From assembly GCA_964587045.1 (NCBI GenBank), contig CAZPJY010000004.1, positions 699-64,698 on the forward strand: a DNA stretch of 64,000 nt, written 5' to 3'. This document shows positions 2,109 to 55,631 of this stretch, in pieces. The translations under genes and the position numbers were made by a program. The notes beneath the pieces are model-generated. The model was not told the origin of the DNA. It saw only the letters and a program-made list of their open reading frames with translations, and did not search any database. Origin of the DNA: an uncultured Methanosarcinales archaeon (lineage in GTDB: Archaea > Nanobdellota > Nanobdellia > Woesearchaeales > CAZPJY01). Numbering within the stretch: position 1 is the first letter of the stretch; every line of letters starts with the position of its first letter.

Positions 2109-3175
2109 TGGATTTCCCGACTAATCCTTTTTATGAATGTAGATACGCTGAAATTTAACGCCTGTCTCTCGCAACTCCTCCGACACGACTTTGTATCCAG
2201 GGATTTGAGTGTCGCACATATTTTATTAGGGGATATATCCTTTATCAGCATCCCTGTCTCGCCGTCAATCACGGATTCTTTGTATCCTCCCTCACATGGG
2301 GCAATGACGGGCTTGCCTGAGGCCATCGCTTCCACCGCGGTCATGCCGAAATCCTCGTCTTTGGCAGTTGTGATGAAACCTTCACACCTGGCATAAAGGC
2401 TTACGAGTTTTTCAAAGCTGACATGGTTCAGGAAATTGACGTTTGAAGGGGCAATCCTCTTGATATAGGATGAATATTCCTTAAAATGCCTCGATTCCTC
2501 ATACGAGCCAACTATTATCAGTTTTTGGTCAGGCATCCTACGGAAGGCCTCCACTTGCATCTCCACTCGCTTGGGCGATACAAGACGGTTCACACTCAGC
2601 CAGTAGCCCCTACTCCTCTCATGATGGAATAAATCGGTTTCGACCGGCGGGTGGATAACCTTTGACTTCCTGCCAAGGAACTTTCTAACCCGTTGTCTCG
2701 TGTTCTCAGAATTGCACACAATTTTTGTGACATGCTTCACATAATCCTTGTTCAGGCGCCGGTTCCATCTCACCCAGACATCAAATACAGGTCTTGCGAT
2801 TGGCGGGACGAGATTATTCCGCGTGTATAAATACAGGTCCCAAATCTCCCGAATTGGGGAATGTACGTACCACATATTAGGCTTGTTGTTGACAGCTCCG
2901 GACACTGCCCAATCACCGCTAATTATGTAGTAATCGTATTCCTTTTCAAGTTTAAGTGTCCTGAAACGCCAAAGCGCCAGCTGCTGCCTGAAAGGAGCAT
3001 TAATTGGTATCCATCCGAGAGTCTTGACTTCCTGAGAAAAACCCATCCTCCTGATCTTCTGAGCGTCAGCTACAGTGGAGAAGACATCAGCCCCAAGCTC
3101 TCTTCCGAGAGTCAAGCTCACCCTCTCTGCTCCCCCAATATTGTCCAAGTAATTGTGAAAGACGGCTATTGGCAT
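2105..3175 (-). CDS. Glycosyltransferase family 4 (group 1)
   Basis: C-terminal EGFGMTAVEAMASGKPVIA motif typical of GT1/GT4 enzymes. Overlaps the GT2 start by 4 nt. Confidence 0.8.
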   Translation of the reverse strand: MPIAVFHNYLDNIGGAERVSLTLGRELGADVFSTVADAQKIRRMGFSQEVKTLGWIPINAPFRQQLALWRFRTLKLEKEYDYYIISGDWAVSGAVNNKPNMWYVHSPIREIWDLYLYTRNNLVPPIARPVFDVWVRWNRRLNKDYVKHVTKIVCNSENTRQRVRKFLGRKSKVIHPPVETDLFHHERSRGYWLSVNRLVSPKRVEMQVEAFRRMPDQKLIIVGSYEESRHFKEYSSYIKRIAPSNVNFLNHVSFEKLVSLYARCEGFITTAKDEDFGMTAVEAMASGKPVIAPCEGGYKESVIDGETGMLIKDISPNKICATLKSLDTKSCRRSCERQALNFSVSTFIKRISREIQ

Positions 3176-4572: not shown

Positions 4573-5501
4573 GGCTTATGCAAAACCCTTCGAAGGAGGC
4601 GCGTATGCATACCGCCGAACACATCCTCTTCAGGGCTCTCCAGCTCCAGGATGAGCAGGTCAAGCTGGACAAGATCAAGCTGGGAGAAGACGAGAGCTCC
4701 TTTTACATATCATCTGAAAATCTCGACTGGGAAAAGGTCCTCAAGGCTGAGGAACAGGCAAACAGGATAGTGGACGAGAAGAGGAAAGTGTCTGAAGAGC
4801 AGGTCCCGAAAGCCGAAGCGGCGAAGATGAAAGAGCTTCGCATAAAGCTCGAGAGGATAAAGGAAAACACGGTGCGCGTGATAAGGATTGAGGATTACGA
4901 CCTCTCAGCCTGCTCCGGCGACCACTGCGCAAGCACAGGACTGGTCGGCAACATCTTGGTCACGAGGTTCAACTCGATGGGCGGCGGCAGGTACCAGGTC
5001 AGGTACAAGATCGGCGCGCTGAGCGACCTGTACGAGATGGCCGGGGTTGCGAGGCTGGCTTCGGAGGCTCTCGGCACGGAGATGGGGCATGTCACCAAGG
5101 CCCTTCGCAACCTAATAAGTGACGAGGAGAACTACAGGAACAGGTACAGGGAGCTCTCAAAGGATGCCATAAAGGAGGTCAACAGGGAAAAGGTAGGCAC
5201 GGTGGACCTCATACACAGCGTCTATGAAGATCTGGAGCACAAGCAGCTCGTCGAGAGCGCCGGACAGCACGCATCGGACTCAACGGTGGTATGCTTCTTC
5301 AACAAGAAGCGGGACCAGGCACAAGTCATTATCAGCACCAAGCATCCAAAACTGCGGGCAGACGAGCTCCTGAAGATAGTCTTCGAGCTAGGCGGCAAAG
5401 GCGGCGGCAGGGAGAACTTCGCGATGGGGAGCGTGGGACTAGACCATATTGAGACGGTCCTATCTGAGATCAAGCGCATCATCAGCGAGACTATCCGTTG
5501 A
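4569..5501 (+). CDS. alaX: AlaX-M type alanyl-tRNA editing protein (AlaRS editing domain plus DHHA1 domain)
   Basis: Zn-binding motifs HTAEH and CSGDHC, plus a C-terminal GGKGGGR DHHA1-like motif. The start overlaps the asnS stop (ATGA). Confidence 0.65.
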   Translation: MRLMQNPSKEARMHTAEHILFRALQLQDEQVKLDKIKLGEDESSFYISSENLDWEKVLKAEEQANRIVDEKRKVSEEQVPKAEAAKMKELRIKLERIKENTVRVIRIEDYDLSACSGDHCASTGLVGNILVTRFNSMGGGRYQVRYKIGALSDLYEMAGVARLASEALGTEMGHVTKALRNLISDEENYRNRYRELSKDAIKEVNREKVGTVDLIHSVYEDLEHKQLVESAGQHASDSTVVCFFNKKRDQAQVIISTKHPKLRADELLKIVFELGGKGGGRENFAMGSVGLDHIETVLSEIKRIISETIR

Positions 5502-6306
5502 GGTATGAGAATATAGGATCCTCCATCTTCACAAGGCTTTCTATGGTGGCCTTGAATCTCTTGACATCATCGCCGAAGTATAATGCCCTGATCTCAGTCC
5601 CCTTCTCCGCAACTCCCATCATAATGCTCATGAAGCTGATGGGGTTCATGACTGTGTTGCCCTTCAGGAGCCGTGCCTCGTCTATCTCATACCCTGAAAA
5701 AGCCTTGACGACGTGAGCTATGGGCCTCATGTGCAGTCCGTCCTTGTGTGTGACTATGAGGTCTATTGCCGCGTTGGCTTTCTTCATGAGCATTTCAGCT
5801 TCGTAATCGTAGTTTTGGTATTCGATAACCTCACCCAGGTTGCTTGCCATCTCGTCTAGGACCTTCTTTACCTTGTGGTGGCCTTTTGGGTTCTTAGCAT
5901 ATAGCTTCAATAGCTCATGCTTGGTGAAAGGCCCTGCGGCCTCCCATTGGCTGGGGCTGCGGGGATCAAAAGCGAACCTGTTTGAAAGTCCCACAAGGTC
6001 TATCTCGGGATACTTGTCAGCAATCCCAGCCATTATGTGGTACTCCACCTCCTCAAGGTTGTGGTTCAGAATCACATCCATCTGAGAATAGTCATGCAGT
6101 ATCACTTCGAGAACGTCACCAATCTTTTGGGTCGGTATAGTCCGCCTGCAGTGTTCACAGTTACTTATCGCTTCAGAGCAGTCGTGCCCCTTGTCAATGA
6201 GGCTGGTGAAGACATCGACTAGTTCGGGACTCTCCTGCATCAGTTTTCGAGCGTTTGCCTTGATGCGTTCGTCAGTAATCCTAAGCTTTTTGAATAGCTC
6301 TTCCAT
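5491..6306 (-). CDS. Fusion protein: N-terminal domain of unknown function (about 185 aa, CxxC...CxxC) plus C-terminal HPr-like phosphocarrier domain
   Basis: The C-terminal about 85 aa align to HPr: GLHMRPIAHVVKAF versus the GLHxRPAAxFVK active-site His15 region; ISFMSIMMG versus the KSIMG Ser46 region; and a terminal ...LVKM. Confidence 0.55.
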   Translation of the reverse strand: MEELFKKLRITDERIKANARKLMQESPELVDVFTSLIDKGHDCSEAISNCEHCRRTIPTQKIGDVLEVILHDYSQMDVILNHNLEEVEYHIMAGIADKYPEIDLVGLSNRFAFDPRSPSQWEAAGPFTKHELLKLYAKNPKGHHKVKKVLDEMASNLGEVIEYQNYDYEAEMLMKKANAAIDLIVTHKDGLHMRPIAHVVKAFSGYEIDEARLLKGNTVMNPISFMSIMMGVAEKGTEIRALYFGDDVKRFKATIESLVKMEDPIFSYLNG

Positions 6307-6930: not shown

Positions 6931-7048
6931 GTTTAATGGTAGGGGCCCCATTTATTAATAGGCTGTGAAAGCGTTATTTAGAAGCGCCTTTCATAAGGTT
7001 TAAAAACCCTTTTCATAAGTAATTTAAAAGTGCGATGTTTCCCTGACT

Positions 7049-7754: not shown

Positions 7755-7988
7755 ATGCTCACTTCGATCATGAACAAGGGGGGCAAAATCAAGCCGACCC
7801 ACCTGATGTACAAGGCAAACCTATCGCATACCCTCATGAAGTCCTACCTAGAGGAGCTAGTCGAAAAAGAGCTGATAAACGAGGTCAAGAACAAGAACTA
7901 CACCTATTTCATTCTGACCGACAGGGGACATGAGTTCATCGAGAAATTCCGGCAGATGAAGGAGTTCGAGAAGACCTTTGGACTTTGA
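7755..7988 (+). CDS. Small winged-helix DNA-binding protein
   Basis: About 77 aa with a predicted HTH ([28 protein letters not shown]). The start is set at the ATG at 7755 just after the upstream stop. The listed ORF allows an alternative start at 7716. Confidence 0.4.
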
Positions 7989-8032: not shown

Positions 8033-8443
8033 GTGAATAAAATGAAAGGAAAGCTTTCAGATTTATTAACGGATGCCGTTCTTGAGACATTGCCCGTCGA
8101 TATCAGCATCATAGATGAAAACGACAAGGTCATCGCATGGAACAGGCATGAGTACAGGCTTTTCCACCGGCCGATGCAGGCACTGGGCCGTGATGTGAGG
8201 GATTGCCATCCCAAGAAGAGCGTGCATCTCGTCGAGCGCATCCTTGAGGATTTCAAGAGCGGCAAGAAAGACATGGCGAGATTCTACATCAACATGAATC
8301 TTAATGAGGGCGAATCTCATAAGGTCCTGATCGATTACTTCGCCCTGCGTGGACCCCAAGGCAAGTACCTCGGATGCATGGAGGTGAGCCAGGATGTTTT
8401 TGACATCATGAACCTCCACGGCGAGAAGCGGCTTTTTGAGTAG
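8033..8443 (+). CDS. Stand-alone PAS-like sensor domain protein (PAS_10/DUF438-associated type)
   Basis: LETLPVDISIIDENDKVIAWNR...GRDVRDCHPKKSVHLVERILEDFKSGKKD matches the PAS fold signature, including a conserved CHP. GTG start. Confidence 0.5.
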   Translation: MNKMKGKLSDLLTDAVLETLPVDISIIDENDKVIAWNRHEYRLFHRPMQALGRDVRDCHPKKSVHLVERILEDFKSGKKDMARFYINMNLNEGESHKVLIDYFALRGPQGKYLGCMEVSQDVFDIMNLHGEKRLFE

Positions 8444-8472
8444 GGATTTTGGCTGAATTTTAAGATAAAGCG
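8411..8472 (+). repeat. Direct repeat copy 1 (about 60 bp), covering the last codons and stop of the PAS gene plus 30 bp downstream
   Basis: aacctccacggcgagaagcggctttttgagtagggattttggctgaattttaagataaagcg matches 10295-10355 with 3-5 mismatches. Confidence 0.85.
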
Positions 8473-8503
8473 GCTTTGCACAAATATTCGAAAATTAATA
8501 TAC

Positions 8504-9466
8504 TTAGAAGGGGAAGTAATCGTATTTGTAGGTCTCGGTAATCCTGAGGATGTCGAAGTCGCGGATGATGGTAGAAAATTTTTTTCTGATATCAGCAAGT
8601 ATTGTGTAGAGTTCATCCTCATTTTCGGCCTCTACCTCTATTTCCAAATCCCAGGAGCCAATGAGCTTCAGGAATTGCGTGGCTTTTCTATGCTGGTCTA
8701 GGTAGGCTTTCAAAGCGCTCTCTGACTGGTCGTCGAAGTTCTTGGTCCTGAGAATGATCTTGTAATGATTAATACCGACGTTTTGAAGGTTAAGGTAACA
8801 GCGGTACTGGACGATGATTCTATCTTTGACGAGTTTTTTGAGGCGGTAGGTGACGACGTCCCTTGTGAGATTTGTTTTTTTGGAGAGATCGACGATGCTA
8901 ATACGGGCGTCAGTTGAGAGGATTCTGAGGATTTCCCGGTCAGTGTCATCTAATGAGTAGCGTGTGGCAGGCTTGCCGTATGTGAAGGGTGCAGAAGGGG
9001 TGTCAGTCAAGTATTTTCTGGCGAAGACGGGAGAGTACTCGGTTAAAAGGACATCCTTCTCGAGGATGAATCGTGCATAGAGCTTCATGAACTTGCTGAG
9101 CGATTGTCCGAAATCAAAGTTCGAGGTGGTGAGCAGGGAGACAGCCAAGTCCCACTTGCCGCGGATCTGGGCGACCCATACTGCGGCGTGGTCGTTTATC
9201 CAGTAATCGACGATGTTTTTCTCATCTTCGAGGGTGGTGTCCTGGAACTTGAAGTAGATCTTGTATTGTGAGTAGCCGAGCCTGGTGAAATCGATGATGG
9301 TGTAGTATTCGAAGATGATTTTGTTCTTATGAAGACGTTTGAGCCGGTATTCGACCGCGGGCTTGCTGAGGCCGACCCTCTTTGCGATCTGGGTGTTGGA
9401 GAGCCTTGCATTCTGGTCCAAGAGGGAGAGGATTTTCTTGTCCTTGAGGTCAAGTCTATGGAGCAT
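8504..9466 (-). CDS. Lrp/AsnC-family transcriptional regulator with two tandem HTH-AsnC plus RAM modules
   Basis: Two repeats of the pattern DxxDxKILxxLxxxARxSxxxIAKxxGLSxxxVxxRLKxL, each followed by a ligand-binding RAM-like region. 320 aa. Confidence 0.75.
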   Translation of the reverse strand: MLHRLDLKDKKILSLLDQNARLSNTQIAKRVGLSKPAVEYRLKRLHKNKIIFEYYTIIDFTRLGYSQYKIYFKFQDTTLEDEKNIVDYWINDHAAVWVAQIRGKWDLAVSLLTTSNFDFGQSLSKFMKLYARFILEKDVLLTEYSPVFARKYLTDTPSAPFTYGKPATRYSLDDTDREILRILSTDARISIVDLSKKTNLTRDVVTYRLKKLVKDRIIVQYRCYLNLQNVGINHYKIILRTKNFDDQSESALKAYLDQHRKATQFLKLIGSWDLEIEVEAENEDELYTILADIRKKFSTIIRDFDILRITETYKYDYFPF

Positions 9467-9544
9467 TTAATTTATAATGTGTTTATATTATAAAAATTTT
9501 ACTTAAGAATAATAAAATAATGAAGAAAGTATTAATTATATGTT

Positions 9545-10273
9545 TTGTGTTACTATTGTGGAGGTAAGGAACAAAATCGCAAAAAAGAGGAACAAACAAT
9601 GAAAACTAAATTACTTGAAGAAGACACATATATTGTGATTGAAAAATTTATCGAATCCATTAAACCTAAATTCAGTCCATCAAGTCATTTTTTAGGGCCT
9701 TATCATGCCATCTATTTGGTGGATGAGAAGCAGGCAAGAGCAATTCGACAGACCTATAACTATAATAATCACCGAAATGAAGCGATACAAGTCAAGTGTA
9801 TCTTGAAAGATAAAGCCCGGTTGGTTTTAGAGCATGAAAAAAAATGTATAGAAACTTATCTTCAAGAATCGCCCTACAAAGATCCAATTCTCATTCCTTC
9901 AATGAAAGCAAAAGTGCCCAGAGAAAGAAAGAAGGGAATGTGGGAGATGTGGGCCAAGCTTTTGTTATTTGCACACAGAAATTATGAAATAAAATTACTT
10001 AACTTAATGACCACATCGGAAAAAAATAAGCATATTGAATTACGAAAGCAAATATTTGCGGAAAATGAATGGGGGTTGCTAAGAAACTTTCTTAAAAAAT
10101 ATTCCTCACATGAAAAAATGCCTCCCGGTACATATTTTTTTAACCAGAGATCATTTTATGGTGAAAGCCTGGATGAGTTCATAATTAATACAGGAATCCC
10201 GAAGCGGCTACTACTTGAGGACAAGAATAACTTTAATATCATTTACGACGCAATCCTAATCGACCAACGCTAA
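9545..10273 (+). CDS. Hypothetical protein, compositionally foreign (very AT-rich, about one third GC)
   Basis: Long ORF with Lys/Asn/Ile-rich codon usage unlike its neighbours. The likely true start is the ATG at 9599, preceded by aagagga. Confidence 0.4.
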   Translation: MCYYCGGKEQNRKKEEQTMKTKLLEEDTYIVIEKFIESIKPKFSPSSHFLGPYHAIYLVDEKQARAIRQTYNYNNHRNEAIQVKCILKDKARLVLEHEKKCIETYLQESPYKDPILIPSMKAKVPRERKKGMWEMWAKLLLFAHRNYEIKLLNLMTTSEKNKHIELRKQIFAENEWGLLRNFLKKYSSHEKMPPGTYFFNQRSFYGESLDEFIINTGIPKRLLLEDKNNFNIIYDAILIDQR

Positions 10274-10294
10274 AACAACCTGTTCCAATAAAAA

Positions 10295-10355
10295 AACTCC
10301 ACTGCGAGAAGCGGCTTCTAGAGTAGGGATTTTGGCTAAATTTTAAGATAAAGCG
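10295..10355 (+). repeat. Direct repeat copy 2 (about 60 bp)
   Basis: aaactccactgcgagaagcggcttctagagtagggattttggctaaattttaagataaagcg. It carries an out-of-context copy of the PAS gene C-terminal codons (…CEKRLLE*). Confidence 0.85.
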
Positions 10356-10395
10356 AAAAGTATTTATAGTAAAGCATACTTTACGTAAAGTTAAC

Positions 10396-10593
10396 TTGAC
10401 ATTGAAGAAGAACAGGCTGAAGGAGTACCGCCAGAGGATGGGATTCTCCCAGGAGAAGCTTGCCAAGTTAGCGGAGGTATCAAGGCAGACCATAATCTCG
10501 ATTGAGAGCGGGAAGTACACCCCTTCCCTGCCTCTGGCGCTCAAGTTCGCCAAGATCTTCAAATGCAGGGTCGAAGATTTGTTCGGAGTGTGA
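10396..10593 (+). CDS. XRE-family (Cro/C1-type) HTH transcriptional regulator
   Basis: NRLKEYRQRMGFSQEKLAKLAEVSRQTIISIESGKYTPSLPLALKFAKIF is a canonical HTH_XRE. TTG start, with an alternative TTG at 10402. A TATA-like tatttatag lies about 27 nt upstream. Confidence 0.7.
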   Translation: MTLKKNRLKEYRQRMGFSQEKLAKLAEVSRQTIISIESGKYTPSLPLALKFAKIFKCRVEDLFGV

Positions 10594-11041: not shown

Positions 11042-12397
11042 ATGGACATCAAGGTGGGACTCGAAATCCACGGGTACCTCAGGACAGAACAGAAGCTCTT
11101 CTGCACCTGTGAGATAGACAGGACCGCGGAGCCAAACACCACGATCTGCCCTGTCTGCACCTCCCAGCCAGGGGCACGGCCGATGCTCCCAAACAAGGAG
11201 GCTGTTGACACCATAATCGCAATAGCCCTCATGCTGGGCTGCAGGCTCAACAAGACCCTGATGTTCCAGCGCAAGCACTACTCCTGGCCTGACCTACCTT
11301 CAGGCTACCAGCGCACCATGTCAGGCTCCTACTCACTGCCCGTTGGGACGGACGGAGAGTTCCTCGGCATCGGGATTGAGGAGGTCCATCTCGAGGAGGA
11401 CCCAGCGGCTTGGGACCCAAACACAGGGCTCGTAGACTACAACAGGAGCGGCTACCCGCTGGTCGAGATAGTAACCAAGCCCGACTTCTCCTCGCCAGAC
11501 CAGCTGAGGGAATGGCTGAAGAGGCTCATCACGACCCTATCATACGTCAAGGCCCTGGATAAGGATGCCGGCATCAAGAGCGACGTCAACGTCTCGATAG
11601 CACCTGATTTCAGGAGGGTCGAGATTAAGAACGTCAACTCGTTCAGGTCCATTGTACGGGCAGTCGAGTACGAGGCCCACCGGCAGAAGAGCGAGAAAGT
11701 GAAGAAGCAGCACACCCGTGCCTGGGACGACAAGGTCGGCGCCACCGTGTTCATGCGCGACAAGGAGACCGCTGAGGATTACATGTTCATCCCCGAGCCC
11801 GATCTCCCTGTAATCCATGTCGATGACAGGTGGAGGAAGACAATAGAGTCCAGCCTTCCTGAGCCGCCCTCGGCAAAGAGGAAGAGATACCTGAAGTTGG
11901 GCCTTGACGAGATCCATGCCGAGTCGATCTCCTCAGACCTGGCCCTGGCCGACATCTTCGAGACCGCCGCAGAGGAGGTGGACCCTGTGCTTGCGGCGAA
12001 GTGGGTCAAAAGGGAGGTCGTGAGGGTCGCTAACTACAACAAGATCGACAGCGAAGACCTCAATCTGGACAGGGCACAGTTCACCAAGCTGCTTAGTATG
12101 GTGGAGGCCAAACGCATCACGGAGAAGGTCGCAAAAGAGTTCCTGGAAAGGCTCGTGAAAAAGTCGTTTGACGTAGAAAAAGAAGTTAAGAAGCTGGGCC
12201 TAGAATCGGTGCGGGATGCTGCGCAGATCGAAAGGTGGTGCGAGGAGTCCATCCGGGAGAACCCGAAAGTCGTCGATGATGTCAAGTCAGGCAAGGAGAA
12301 CGCCGTCAACTTCCTGGTAGGACGGGTGATGCGGAAGAGCAGGGGGACGGCGTCGCCTGAAGAAGTGAAAAAGATTATCAAAGAGATTATTTCATAA
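11042..12397 (+). CDS. gatB: Asp-tRNA(Asn)/Glu-tRNA(Gln) amidotransferase subunit B
   Basis: N-terminus MDIKVGLEIHGYLRTEQKLFCTCE is a GatB hallmark. C-terminal YqeY-like tail NFLVGRVMRKSRGTASPEEVKKIIKEII. 451 aa. The listed 593-aa ORF has a spurious N-terminal extension. Confidence 0.85.
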   Translation: MDIKVGLEIHGYLRTEQKLFCTCEIDRTAEPNTTICPVCTSQPGARPMLPNKEAVDTIIAIALMLGCRLNKTLMFQRKHYSWPDLPSGYQRTMSGSYSLPVGTDGEFLGIGIEEVHLEEDPAAWDPNTGLVDYNRSGYPLVEIVTKPDFSSPDQLREWLKRLITTLSYVKALDKDAGIKSDVNVSIAPDFRRVEIKNVNSFRSIVRAVEYEAHRQKSEKVKKQHTRAWDDKVGATVFMRDKETAEDYMFIPEPDLPVIHVDDRWRKTIESSLPEPPSAKRKRYLKLGLDEIHAESISSDLALADIFETAAEEVDPVLAAKWVKREVVRVANYNKIDSEDLNLDRAQFTKLLSMVEAKRITEKVAKEFLERLVKKSFDVEKEVKKLGLESVRDAAQIERWCEESIRENPKVVDDVKSGKENAVNFLVGRVMRKSRGTASPEEVKKIIKEIIS

Positions 12398-13609: not shown

Positions 13610-15231
13610 TTCTTCACACCCTCAAAGCTCATCGTGTCACGCTGGTAGTCCTCTTTCGTGTACTCCTTGGCCTTCTTGGCGACGCTCTTATTCTGCGTCT
13701 CGATCACCAGGTCCTCGAAGAGCGGAACCTTGATGGGCATCGCGAACTTGGCGAAGTTGGACGACACCAAAGCCTCCCCTATGTCCAGCGCGGCGATCGT
13801 CCTGGAATCGTCTGAGAGGTCCTGCGGGGATGATTCGATGACTGCCTGGCGCTCAGCCGCCATCTCCAGGCCCAGGATGATCTTGGTGTTCATGTTCGCG
13901 AGGATTGCTTTTGGTATGAGGCTGGGGAGCTGGGTAATCGCAACCAGGCCGACCTTGAACTTCCTGCCCTCACGCGCGATGGCGGCGAAGATGTTGCTCC
14001 CCCTCTCCAAGACCTCCTTGCCAAGCACCCTCGGAGCCTCCTCGAGCACCACCGATATGACCGGTTTGTCTCCCAGCAGCCCTCCCATCTTGTAGCGCCT
14101 GTACCTCCTCATCACCTCGTTGCATATTATCGACCCTATCAGGATCTCGACCGCGCCTGAGAAGCTTGAGGTGTCGACCACCACGACCTTGCAGTCCTCG
14201 AGGTCCGAGACTATGTCTGGGACGGTGCTCCCTCCGGCCTTAAGGTCGAAGACGCCATGCGCCGTGAGGCGGTTGTTGGCAAACGTCAGGTCCAGCAGGT
14301 GGAGCATCCTCCTTCGCACAACGGCGAGGGTGCCTTCGAAGAAGTCGACCTTGAGTGGCTTCTGCAGGACCAGCGCCTCGATCCACGCGTTGCCGTGCTC
14401 TGTGTAGTAAGCGTTGATGGCCTGCTGCTGTGCGTCAGACCAGTCGACCACGCCCTCGAAGTGGTGCGGCCTCAGGGTGGACAGGTTGATCTTGAGCGAT
14501 CGCGCCCCTGACGGCGGCTCGTTGGGCGTGCAGTACACGACACCGCCGGAGGGGTGGTCCTTGAACCCCTTGCCGTTCCGCCCGTAGTACTCGTCATGCG
14601 GATCCAAGACGAGGATCCCTGCGTATCCCCTGCCTATCATGCCCCACACCATCGACTTGGTGAGGTTGCTCTTGCCCCTCCCTGTCGTGGCGGGTATCAG
14701 CACGTGATGTGTGAGGACGGCGACGCCGGGCAGCGCGATGTCCACATCGATGGCCTTGGAGCCGCTCCTGAGCTTGCCCAGCCTCAACGGGTCCGAAGGC
14801 TCGGTCAGGAACGCCAGGTCCTCCTTTTCGATGGCCCTGACCTTTGAGAAGAATGGGGGAAGCGACTTGGTGATGGACACGGTCTGGCCCAGGGTGATCA
14901 GGGGCTTTGCGTAGGCGACAGTGTAGTTCCTCAGCTCGGCATCCATGAAATCGAGGTTTCCCTGCTGCTCCAGCTCCATGCCCGAGATCAGCTCCAGGCT
15001 CTGGGATGAGAGCTGGCTGCCGTACCTAACATCGAACACCTGCAGGATTACCCTGCCGCTGTCAGAATCATTGACCAGCAGCTCACCTATCTCGATTCTC
15101 TCGCCATCCTTCTGCCTGATGGATATCTTGCCCAGCTCCCCGCTGATAATCTGCCCCTTCAACGCTCCATCCTCCTTATCTGGCTGATCTCGTCGCGGGA
15201 GATCGAGCAGCCGTTGAGCTTGACGCCCCAC
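13606..15231 (-). CDS. herA: HerA helicase (FtsK/HerA-superfamily ATPase)
   Basis: Walker [32 protein letters not shown] and [15 protein letters not shown] all match HerA signatures, with an N-terminal HAS-barrel-like region. The N-terminal about 24 codons overlap the upstream ORF, so the true start may be internal. Confidence 0.8.
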
Positions 15232-53438: not shown

Positions 53439-54836
53439 ATGCCCATGAAGGTCTACAACACGCTTTCGCGGAAGAAGGAAGAGTTCGTGCCCTTAGAGAA
53501 AGGCAAGGTCGGCATATACACCTGCGGCCCCACGGTCTACAACTACGCCCACATCGGGAATTTCAGGAGCTACGTATTCGAGGACCTGCTCATCAGGTTC
53601 CTGCGGTACAAGGGCCTCAAGGTCACGCAGGTCATGAACATAACGGATATCGATGACAAGACCATCCGCGACTCGAAGAAGGAGGGCAAGAGCCTAAAGG
53701 AGTTCACCGACTTCTACACCAGGGAGTTCCTGAAAGACCTAGACACCCTCAACATCTCAAAGCCTGACATCATGCCGCGCGCGACCGAGCACATCAAAGA
53801 GATGGTCGCCATGGTCAAGAATCTGGAGAAGAACAAGCACACCTACCAAAAGGGCGGCTCGACCTACTTTTCCATCAGGACCATGCCCAACTACGGCGAG
53901 CTCGCGCGCATAGACCTAGCTGGCCTGCAGGACTCAGCTTCCGGCAGGGTGGACGACGACTCCTACGAAAAGGAGGATGCCAAGGACTTTGCCCTGTGGA
54001 AGGGGTATGACGAGTCGGACGGGGATGTGTTCTGGGAGACCGAGCTTGGGAAGGGCAGGCCCGGATGGCACATCGAGTGCTCTGCAATGTCTACCAAGTA
54101 CCTCGGCGACAGCTTCGACATCCATTGCGGAGGGGTCGACCTAATATTTCCCCACCACTCCAACGAGATAGCGCAGGCTGAAGGCGCGACAGGAAAGAAG
54201 TTCGTGAAGTACTGGATGCACTGCCGCCACCTGATAGTTGAAGGGCAGAAGATGTCCAAGTCATTGGGCAACTTCTACACGGTGAGGGACCTGCTTAAGA
54301 AAGGGTATTCCGCAAAGGCCATCCGTTACGTCCTGCTCGCCACGCATTACCGCCAAGAGCTCAACTTCACTTTCGACTCGCTCAAGGGCGCCGAGAACAA
54401 CATTGAGAAGTTCCGCGAGTTCCTGGTCAAGCTGAAGGCCGTCAAGGGCAAGGCAGAAGGTGACGTCGACAAGTCGATAAAAGCCGCGCGGCAGAAGTTC
54501 GAGTCCTCGCTCGACGACGACCTGAACATATCCGGCGCCATGGCGGCGGTCTTCGAGTTCATGGGTGATGTCAACTCAATGATGGGTGACGGCATCCTCA
54601 GCGGGGAGGGGGCGAAGAAAGCCTTAGATTTCATGATGGAGCTGGACAAGGTATTCGGCCTCATGGACTTTGATGAGGCGAAGGTGCCAGATGAGATCCA
54701 AGCCCTCGTGGATAAGAGGGAGGCTGCCCGGAAGGCAAAGGACTGGGCCACCTCAGATAGGCTTCGCGATGATATCAAGGAGAAAGGCTGGGCGGTGTCA
54801 GATTCCAAGGACGGGCCGATCGTGAAGAAGCTATAA
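53439..54836 (+). CDS. cysS: Cysteinyl-tRNA synthetase
   Basis: YTCGPTVYNYAHIGN (HIGH-type) and KMSKSLGN motifs. 465 aa. Confidence 0.9.
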   Translation: MPMKVYNTLSRKKEEFVPLEKGKVGIYTCGPTVYNYAHIGNFRSYVFEDLLIRFLRYKGLKVTQVMNITDIDDKTIRDSKKEGKSLKEFTDFYTREFLKDLDTLNISKPDIMPRATEHIKEMVAMVKNLEKNKHTYQKGGSTYFSIRTMPNYGELARIDLAGLQDSASGRVDDDSYEKEDAKDFALWKGYDESDGDVFWETELGKGRPGWHIECSAMSTKYLGDSFDIHCGGVDLIFPHHSNEIAQAEGATGKKFVKYWMHCRHLIVEGQKMSKSLGNFYTVRDLLKKGYSAKAIRYVLLATHYRQELNFTFDSLKGAENNIEKFREFLVKLKAVKGKAEGDVDKSIKAARQKFESSLDDDLNISGAMAAVFEFMGDVNSMMGDGILSGEGAKKALDFMMELDKVFGLMDFDEAKVPDEIQALVDKREAARKAKDWATSDRLRDDIKEKGWAVSDSKDGPIVKKL

Positions 54837-55631
54837 ACTGATAATCTTGTGCCCCGCAACGCCAAGATTATATACTTCGGTCCTGCCAATCTTGACCATC
54901 CCTTCTGCCTCGTGGATATGCCCACAGAAAACGAATTTCGGCCGCTCTCTCTTTATAAAATCCAAAATTACTTTGCTTCCCGCATGCTTCCCTTTCCATT
55001 CTTTCGGAGCGGAAGGGTGGTCTGTTTTGTCCAAAAATCCGTATGGCGGTTGATGGCACACTAGGATGTCTATCCTATTGAAGTTCTTCAATATCCGTTT
55101 TGCCTTAGCTGTTTGTTTCCGCGCTTTTGCGATCTGTTTTTGGTCTTTGCTCTGAAATTCCCTAAACCAACAGATATCGCTAAAATATTCCAGGAATCCA
55201 ATTCTGACTCCACCGATATTCCTGACCGTATTCCTTACAAAATGGAAATTTCTGATCTTATCCATACGTTCCCTCATATAGGGCAATTTGATTCCGTATT
55301 TTATCTCGTCACGTTTCACTCTTGAGGCGTCAACCATATTCATTCCGACATTCCCTAGGATAGAATAGGTCGGGGCAAACCTTGAAGTGTATTTCCAGAC
55401 CGCGATGGATGAGGTGAATATCTCCATCCATGATTTCTTGAGGTCTTTTGCAGTATATTCCAGTTCTTCCAATCCATTCATTTTTCGATTCCTGTTCTCA
55501 AAACATCTGTCCCTAGCGAAGTCCGCTTTCCCCACATCTCCTGTGATAAGAATCAGGTCTGTCTTCAACAAAGGGATCTTCTTAATCTTATCAATGGCCC
55601 CATGAGGGTCGCCTATAGCAAGAATTCTCAT
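54831..55631 (-). CDS. Calcineurin-like metallophosphoesterase
   Basis: MRILAIGDPHG, GDVG, and C-terminal ILVCHQPP / VFCGHIHE motifs. Confidence 0.7.
   Translation of the reverse strand: MRILAIGDPHGAIDKIKKIPLLKTDLILITGDVGKADFARDRCFENRNRKMNGLEELEYTAKDLKKSWMEIFTSSIAVWKYTSRFAPTYSILGNVGMNMVDASRVKRDEIKYGIKLPYMRERMDKIRNFHFVRNTVRNIGGVRIGFLEYFSDICWFREFQSKDQKQIAKARKQTAKAKRILKNFNRIDILVCHQPPYGFLDKTDHPSAPKEWKGKHAGSKVILDFIKRERPKFVFCGHIHEAEGMVKIGRTEVYNLGVAGHKIISL

Follow-up and report, generated by a model that had tools for sequence, protein, structure and literature searches.

The 3′ end of a gene encoding a stand-alone PAS_10 protein is present twice in the DNA analysed here, a 64,000-nt stretch (the window; positions 699 to 64,698 of contig CAZPJY010000004.1 in assembly GCA_964587045.1) from an uncultured archaeon placed by GTDB among the Woesearchaeales. 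The first copy completes the gene, and the second lies downstream as an isolated remnant, with a double Lrp/AsnC regulator and an AT-rich gene of a very rare family between the two. The repeat is a real scar, left at a gene terminus by a recombination that probably involved no autonomous mobile element. We tentatively favour a single event in which 1.82 kb of chromosomal DNA became joined to the PAS_10 gene within its last 33 nt. An ordinary recombination scar of this sort is the most likely origin because the DNA between the copies holds a native core regulator and no integrase. An earlier reading of the sequence alone (the sequence-only reading) had proposed that a mobile element integrated into the gene terminus. 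The event that it pointed to is real and its interpretation as an integrative mobile element is partly supported: the geometry resembles that of attachment (att) sites, but the segment is not one foreign cassette (the Lrp gene is native), carries no mobility genes and has no attP-like copy in the collections searched.

Results

The end of the PAS_10 gene occurs twice

A repeat search of the window returned two direct copies of 62 nt, which share 57 of 62 bases (92%) and are spaced 1883 nt start to start (Table 1). The repeat of about 60 nt and about 93% identity described by the sequence-only reading thus exists, with the second copy starting one base to the left of the 10295 proposed there. 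The five mismatches fall at repeat positions 3, 10, 25, 27 and 45 (C/A, G/T, T/C, T/A and G/A, respectively), and the longest exact run common to both copies is 17 nt. Homology between the copies ends sharply at both boundaries. As had been recognized, copy 1 is the end of the PAS gene with its flank. Its coding part reads AAC CTC CAC GGC GAG AAG CGG CTT TTT GAG TAG, giving NLHGEKRLFE and a stop, and the match between the copies amounts to 29/33 in this part and 28/29 in the non-coding 3′ flank.

A 50-nt degenerate pattern of the repeat found exactly two sites in the 64-kb window and none in 100 dinucleotide-preserving shuffles, and the 62-nt pair is the longest and most similar dispersed repeat of the window. 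The 29-nt flank does not recur after other genes within the 64 kb. With two copies only in the window, a generic intergenic repeat is ruled out, a possibility that the sequence-only reading had itself named as fatal to its proposal.

Copy 2 begins 20 nt past the stop codon of the AT-rich gene, and the promoter of an XRE-family regulator gene lies directly downstream, with a TTTATA box placed immediately after the copy and ~28 nt before the XRE start. It had been described as having no gene attached, and it indeed lies outside every open reading frame (ORF) of at least 50 aa. Further PAS-like sequence was looked for upstream of copy 2, and none was found. Copy 2 is a dead remnant, a pseudo-fragment rather than a gene. 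When the empty site was rebuilt in silico, a well-formed 69-nt intergenic region resulted, composed of the PAS stop, 29 nt with T-tracts and the XRE TATA box.

The exact 133-aa PAS product is present in the protein collection that was searched. A genome-collection scan with the PAS protein gave homologues at 38 loci in bacteria and archaea (40-59% identity), and no neighbour from the window recurs at any of these loci. The C termini of 33 homologues follow the consensus G-[EQ]-[KR]-[RKH]-L-[LMI]-[DESG] before the stop, with G in 33/33 and L, M or I at the third-last residue (stop included) in 33/33. Copy 1 keeps the conserved G and has an unusual F at the third-last residue; copy 2 matches the consensus with LLE and replaces the G by C.

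Table 1. Features in and around the segment bracketed by the duplicated gene end (positions in the window)
Feature	Position	Strand	Remarks
Multi-pass membrane protein, 233 aa	7049-7750	+	Heads the gene cluster in which the PAS gene comes last; GC at third codon positions (GC3) 0.70 (0.697), native-like
Winged-helix protein, 90 aa	7716-7988	+	HTH_45 (PF14947, E 1.3e-19); GC3 0.69 (0.692)
Stand-alone PAS_10 gene, 133 aa	8042-8443	+	PF13596, E 1.1e-20; GC3 0.66 (0.664); 3′ end duplicated
Repeat copy 1	8411-8472	+	Last 10 codons of the PAS gene, stop, 29-nt 3′ flank with T-tracts
Double Lrp/AsnC regulator, 320 aa	8504-9466	-	Convergent with the PAS gene; two AsnC-type helix-turn-helix (HTH) domains (HTH_AsnC/HTH_24)
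Divergent promoter region, Lrp gene and 224-aa gene	9467-9598	.	132 nt; GC 0.21
AT-rich gene, 224 aa	9599-10273	+	ORF; very rare family; predicted all-helical
Repeat copy 2	10294-10355	+	Orphaned PAS 3′ end (KLHCEKRLLE, stop) and flank
XRE-family regulator, 65 aa	10396-10593	+	HTH_3 (PF01381, E 1.3e-15)
Hydrophobic membrane protein, 136 aa	10599-11009	+	ORF paired with the XRE gene
gatB	11042-12397		Downstream of the 136-aa membrane protein gene

Two readings would make the duplication something other than the trace of a recombination. It is very unlikely that the contig, assembled from a metagenome, is a chimera of strain variants or of two loci. The window does come from a single 65.6-kb contig of a public NCBI assembly, with no other sequence more than 90% identical to serve as a cross-check. 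However, the 17-nt longest exact match is below any usual assembly k-mer, so a De Bruijn graph mis-join through the repeat is implausible, and both junctions yield well-formed gene ends and intergenic regions.

Even further from probable is a repeat kept for its function, either as a terminator or operator shared by several genes and maintained by selection or as the template/variable pair of a diversity-generating retroelement. The better preservation of the non-coding part (28/29) than of the coding part (29/33) agrees with such a role, as do the T-tracts of the 29-nt flank, which suit archaeal termination for the PAS, Lrp and 224-aa genes. However, RNA structure is not significant (z +0.1 to +1.2), Rfam has no match, and the 33 nt of coding sequence kept by copy 2 indicate common descent and not function. 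A diversity-generating retroelement was rejected: the window ORFs that were scanned include no reverse transcriptase, and the mismatches are neither adenine-specific nor confined to the adenines of one copy.

The bracketed segment is a compositional mosaic

Composition was judged against 71 non-overlapping ORFs of the window, with a mean GC of 0.524 +/- 0.047 and a mean GC3 of 0.679 +/- 0.093. The minus-strand gene between the copies had been called a double-Lrp regulator, and the profile matches bear this out. Both PF13404 (E 2.5e-27) and PF13412 (E 5e-29) hit two stretches of the 320-aa protein, placing it in the Lrp/AsnC family, and its halves are 31% identical to each other. Pfam did not detect the RAM domain (PF01037) in either half. 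More than 100 full-length relatives exist, all of ~320 aa and 67-74% identical, several of which carry Nanoarchaeota or Woesearchaeota names. With this level of conservation, against 62% at best for GatB, the double Lrp gene is the most conserved gene examined. Its relatives are chromosomal and lie among ribosomal-protein, tRNA-synthetase and peptidase genes in contigs of 268 kb and 1.3 Mb; viral contigs contained no relative. The GC3 of the window gene (0.670) is close to the host mean, whereas the Lrp genes of low-GC relatives have values of 0.14-0.22, which indicates long residence in this high-GC lineage or in a very close relative. The double Lrp gene is a native, lineage-core gene of Woesearchaeota and Nanoarchaeota, and its native composition argues against recent arrival as part of a foreign element.

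The 224-aa gene is the only compositionally alien gene of the segment. Its AT-richness, first noticed by inspection, holds on proper calculation: GC 0.347 and GC3 0.350 correspond to z = -3.8 and -3.6, the most extreme values of any ORF in the window. The AT-rich block as a whole (9467-10293, GC 0.32) stops exactly at the left edge of copy 2. The 1.8-kb segment is thus a compositional mosaic and not one coherent foreign cassette.

Proposed one-sided recombination inside the PAS gene

In the reading that we favour, the double Lrp regulator gene and the AT-rich partner divergent from it would make up the segment joined to the PAS gene. This DNA would have brought its own PAS gene end and terminator (copy 1), so the PAS gene would have stayed intact, and the resident end and terminator would have been displaced 1.9 kb downstream, to become the remnant before the XRE promoter (copy 2). 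The donor would most likely have been the chromosome of a related strain whose genes stood in another order, with a PAS gene convergent with the Lrp gene. Homology inside the PAS gene on one side and an illegitimate join on the other would make this a case of homology-facilitated illegitimate recombination; the same product could come from a circularised fragment through a Campbell-type single crossover. No element-encoded recombinase would be needed, and the segment would not be an autonomous mobile element.

A one-sided exchange of this kind could account in one event for the sharp boundaries, the 92% identity, the intact gene, the mixture of native and alien cargo and the lack of a recombinase. 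Copies that are 92% and not 100% identical, with sharp boundaries, are more to be expected from a meeting of two diverged alleles of the locus than from a fresh target-site duplication. Each copy also combines one consensus with one non-consensus C-terminal residue, as would follow from a crossover between repeat positions 10 and 25. In this crossover the resident end would have had the consensus sequence HGEKRLLE, and the incoming end, HCEKRLFE, would have differed from it at two residues; the mosaic lends weak support to such an exchange. A regulator of host codon composition that belongs to the core of the lineage fits DNA from a close relative and not a foreign element. The well-formed empty site rebuilt above also speaks for this reading, as do gene-end duplicates that bracket small inserts at two unrelated loci, L019 and L039 (both described below).

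A second PAS_10 locus carries a comparable scar together with relatives that can serve as outgroups. In a Syntrophaceae metagenome-assembled genome (JAFGKC010000042; L019), an intact PAS_10 gene is followed by a 415-bp insert with an 87-aa membrane ORF and then by a duplicate of the PAS 3′ end; the two copies (2189-2282 and 2697-2790) are 94 nt long and 89% identical. The remnant copy runs into a flank beginning GCTATT, the same that stands right after the stop codon in the relatives L022 and L023. It is also nearer to L023 than the attached copy is (90% versus 85%), and the attached gene is 92-96% identical to L023 in mid-gene and 84-87% identical in its last 190 nt. Judged by these identities, the attached gene end looks donor-derived, and the pattern agrees with recombination of an incoming segment within the gene, in which a diverged end and new downstream DNA were brought in and the resident end stayed behind. 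On this comparison, the outgroup data appear to favour one-sided recombination.

Several points weigh against this explanation of the window scar. Neither a donor nor an empty site was found in the data searched, so we infer the direction, the order of events and the recombination pathway from the arrangement itself, and we know of no documented competence or other DNA uptake in this archaeon. A donor among close relatives implies that the recipient should already have possessed its own Lrp copy, and there is no second one within the window. The illegitimate junction lacks clear microhomology, and the residue mosaic is weak support because it comprises two informative sites only. Finally, copy 2 directly adjoins the alien 224-aa gene, as would also be the case if the arrival of that gene had created the scar.

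A possible rearrangement around the Lrp gene

The last point leads to a different history, an internal rearrangement, which we consider unlikely. The PAS gene, perhaps with its upstream partners, would once have stood divergent from the Lrp gene and upstream of the XRE gene, and would have been copied to the other side of the Lrp gene. In a second step the original PAS gene would have been deleted, or replaced by the incoming AT-rich gene, with its last 62 nt left in place. The native composition of everything but the 224-aa gene agrees with this history, as does the exact coincidence of the end of the alien block with the start of copy 2.

Such a history also draws on the variability of the site, since the slot divergent from the Lrp gene varies in every relative examined. 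Each of the double-Lrp relatives examined adjoins a different set of small genes, which are hypothetical and have no detectable mutual homology. In 3/4 contexts elsewhere (L040-L042 and a contig of JGI 3300075153) these small genes are divergently transcribed from the regulator. In the JGI contig the slot holds a homologue of the 224-aa protein; by BLAST the 224-aa family has no homology to the genes divergent from Lrp in L040-L042. That the double Lrp gene is a conserved regulator beside a hypervariable slot is a lead.

Set against the rearrangement are the need for at least two events and the distribution of the mismatches. A freely decaying copy 2 should differ more in the 29-nt flank, whereas only one of the five differences lies there (rough P about 0.06). 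The functional copy 1 has the non-consensus F where 33/33 homologues have L, M or I, and no other PAS remnant lies upstream of copy 2. One-sided recombination, in which copy 1 would have come with the incoming DNA, remains the reading that we prefer.

The segment carries no mobility genes

The arrangement has the geometry of an integrative element, with a direct repeat on either side of the insert and a PAS ORF made complete by copy 1, although any recombination into a gene terminus would leave a similar picture. The genes of the insert were scanned with Pfam, PHROG and PADLOC and about 46 of the other large ORFs of the window with Pfam. Among the insert and flanking genes and about 40 other large window ORFs there was no integrase, transposase, relaxase, replication or packaging protein, which upholds the statement of the sequence-only reading that no integrase lies inside the insert. 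In particular, a recombinase was found neither inside nor beside the repeats. Nor is the insert foreign as a whole, the Lrp gene being native and lineage-core and the 224-aa gene alone being alien. Without a recombinase and without foreignness of the whole insert, the segment is not classifiable as an integrative element.

Insertion sequences, transposons and casposons were rejected as well. There is neither a transposase nor a casposase, inverted repeats are absent from the insert ends, and the 62-nt imperfect duplication is too long, far exceeding known target-site duplications.

An integrase-mediated origin would require a circular element whose attP site mimicked the PAS 3′ end; after integration the integrase and other genes would have been lost, leaving a remnant like a cis-mobilizable element (CIME). 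CIMEs are by definition without integration and transfer genes and keep both attL and attR (PMC5704250). We regard this origin as doubtful, although several features agree with it. Direct repeats that regenerate a gene 3′ end, with sharp boundaries and imperfect identity, are what it predicts; a reciprocal crossover could have mixed the consensus and non-consensus residues; and the 224-aa gene is compositionally foreign. In addition, a homologue of the 224-aa protein lies 150 nt from a 66-nt gene-end repeat in another contig (L039, described below), a coincidence for which the chance estimate is about 0.01-0.02.

Against it, no integrase, excisionase or replication or transfer gene, nor a pseudogene of one, was seen in the insert or the scanned window ORFs, and half of the insert is a lineage-core regulator of native composition. 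As a DNA pattern, the repeat had no match in viral contigs (searched with a 35-mer and a 28-mer) or metagenome contigs (50-mer), and the insert DNA had no similarity in phage records. The 224-aa protein had no match in plasmids, and neither insert protein has a relative in viral contigs. A structural model of the 224-aa protein, at the pLDDT of 66 reached with the family alignment, suggests no recombinase fold.

A rare protein family beside gene-end repeats

The 224-aa gene had been called an orphan, which is nearly right. A word-indexed search of 5.8 billion proteins returned the self match alone, and an exhaustive HMMER search of 1.84 billion representative proteins recovered two remote homologues. 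The first, P0126, has 254 aa and 37% identity to the 224-aa protein (E 4e-25); the second, P0127, has 225 aa and about 26-29% identity (E 3e-5). An alignment of the three members contains 33 invariant columns, which shows that the family is real, though very rare. The structure of the 224-aa protein was predicted with a pLDDT of 39 from the single sequence, and fold searches with the model based on the three-sequence alignment were uninformative. The same alignment gave no match in metagenome and viral contigs, for which the patterns used were N-terminal and uninformative; P0126 likewise had no match in viral contigs.

In the JGI 3300075153 contig, P0126 is the product of the third gene in an operon that diverges from the gene for a 322-aa double Lrp, so the pairing of family and regulator is seen twice. 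P0127 is encoded at 926-1603 of the Logan contig L039 (SRR20309470), within a three-gene stretch of lower GC3 than its neighbours. The family genes stand in lower-GC stretches in both cases with readable DNA. This contig has bacterial features, namely strong Shine-Dalgarno sites and a CCA-adding enzyme of class II, the bacterial type. With its three members, the family appears to occur both in an archaeal host and on a contig of bacterial character.

The P0127 gene ends 150 nt from the distal copy of a direct repeat (1753-1818 and 3074-3139) of 66 nt and 91% identity, which takes in the end of the CCA-adding enzyme gene (12 codons and the stop) together with 27 nt of its flank. The bracketed unit of 1321 bp encodes a TrmB regulator, and the ORF of this regulator continues in frame into the distal copy. 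Both family members with readable DNA therefore lie 20-150 nt from a 62-66-nt gene-end direct repeat, and in both cases the repeats bracket a gene for a winged-helix regulator. From these two co-occurrences it could be proposed, as a long shot, that the 224-aa family marks an undescribed small insertion cassette, which would insert into host genes at their 3′ ends, restoring them in the process, and would be common to DPANN archaea and bacteria from comparable habitats. Such a putative cassette could act without a classical integrase, or with the 224-aa protein as a new recombination factor. The same contig also holds a 43-nt element twice (L039:488-530 and 883-925, 95% identical), immediately 5′ of two consecutive genes, which is made up of a hairpin (GCAGGAAAAYCATCCTGC) and a strong Shine-Dalgarno site.

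Repeats of similar size at other loci

About a dozen dispersed repeats of like size were present in the 684 kb of DNA that was fetched, several of them intragenic. Gene-end scars are uncommon, yet not unique to the window.

Three further repeats were seen at loci of the PAS_10 homologues. In L023 a 54-nt direct repeat (11971-12024 and 14097-14150, 89% identical) stands just 3′ of a minus-strand gene at each copy and brackets a 2.1-kb block of three hypothetical genes; it may be another insertion scar. The single-cell assembly L012 contains a 48-nt exact repeat (7784-7831 and 11141-11188) that leads from the interior of the PAS gene to the very end of the contig and is probably an assembly or amplification artefact. 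In L032 the PAS_10 homologue is in two pieces ~140 nt apart (10001-10565, covering residues 1-36 and 30-133) and may be interrupted or rearranged; a 59-nt repeat of 95% identity (9637-9695 and 9889-9947) lies just upstream of the pieces.

Chromosomal context

The window encodes AspRS, CysRS, a class I tRNA synthetase of the Ile/Leu/Val type, eRF1, Nop56/58, Mre11, HerA and an MCM-like ATPase, together with an NiFe hydrogenase, pyruvate:ferredoxin oxidoreductase, acetate kinase, PTA and PEP synthase. These housekeeping and central-metabolism genes identify it as part of the chromosome of a DPANN archaeon. The closest relatives of its GatB are 62% identical, the named ones being mostly Woesearchaeota or Nanoarchaeota. 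Clustering of 15 billion proteins at 90% identity leaves every window protein that was looked up, GatB included, in a cluster by itself. At the two nearest GatB loci a PP-loop ATPase gene stands upstream, and there is no XRE, PAS or Lrp gene there.

On the far side of copy 2, the regulator and membrane protein pair that the sequence-only reading had listed was recovered as the PF01381 gene and the hydrophobic 136-aa ORF of Table 1. Upstream of the segment, the 233-aa membrane protein at the head of the PAS cluster had no match in Pfam, PHROG or PADLOC. The promoter region of this membrane/winged-helix/PAS cluster contains a 21-nt motif, TTTARAARC.CYTTTCATAAG, in tandem (6977-7019; 22 nt start to start).

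Elsewhere in the window, a 271-aa protein encoded on the minus strand at 5491-6306 has a C-terminal HPr domain of the phosphotransferase system (PF00381, E 4e-10), which is unusual for a DPANN archaeon. Two other ORFs have low GC, with z about -2: a GT8 glycosyltransferase (31-1326, 0.434) and a metallophosphoesterase (54831-55631, 0.429). Both are candidates for other acquired genes.

Discussion

Homology-facilitated illegitimate recombination is RecA-dependent and combines one homologous anchor with one microhomology join (PMC6382021). In that source, which cites de Vries and Wackernagel (2002), it is described for Acinetobacter, Streptococcus pneumoniae and Pseudomonas stutzeri. The window scar resembles the products of this process in that the insert stands beside the intact gene that would have served as homology, a putative resident remnant lies next to its native flank, mobility genes are absent, the copies are diverged and the inserted DNA has largely the composition expected of a close relative. 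In contrast, the process has been documented by experiment in naturally transformable bacteria and not in DPANN archaea, and the window offers neither an identified donor nor evident microhomology at the junction.

Like CIMEs, the segment leaves the gene regenerated and has no integrase or transfer genes (PMC5704250). Unlike CIMEs, which derive from integrative and conjugative or integrative and mobilizable elements and usually keep recognisable remnants of them, it shows no such remnants, and half of it is a native core regulator. CIMEs are, moreover, known from bacteria, and no integrase-bearing element is known for the att-like sequence of the window.

Archaeal integrative elements and proviruses of the SSV and pTN3 types also duplicate the 3′ part of a target gene as direct repeats of tens of bases. 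They target tRNA genes, encode an integrase (split by integration in the SSV type) and are several kilobases or longer. The window segment shows none of these traits, neither the tRNA target nor the integrase nor the large size. Its regulator resembles tandem Lrp/AsnC (feast/famine regulatory protein) regulators in having two AsnC-type HTH domains and similar halves within 320 aa; it differs from the usual members of the family in that the RAM domain is undetected and in belonging to a family specific to Nanoarchaeota and Woesearchaeota.

For annotation, the orphan peptide-coding stretch at copy 2 should be treated as a pseudo-fragment. The case also cautions that att-like repeats by themselves do not identify a mobile element. 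The recurrence of this type of scar at unrelated genes and in unrelated organisms, the near-orphan family found twice beside such scars and the hypervariable slot next to the double Lrp gene are wider leads, and each is no more than a lead so far. If one-sided recombination is the correct reading, the window would provide a documented example of gene-order reshuffling in a DPANN archaeon, anchored in a gene terminus, with the gene preserved and a datable remnant still in place. The kind of event is a known one, and this would be a new case of it from a lineage in which its documentation is poor.

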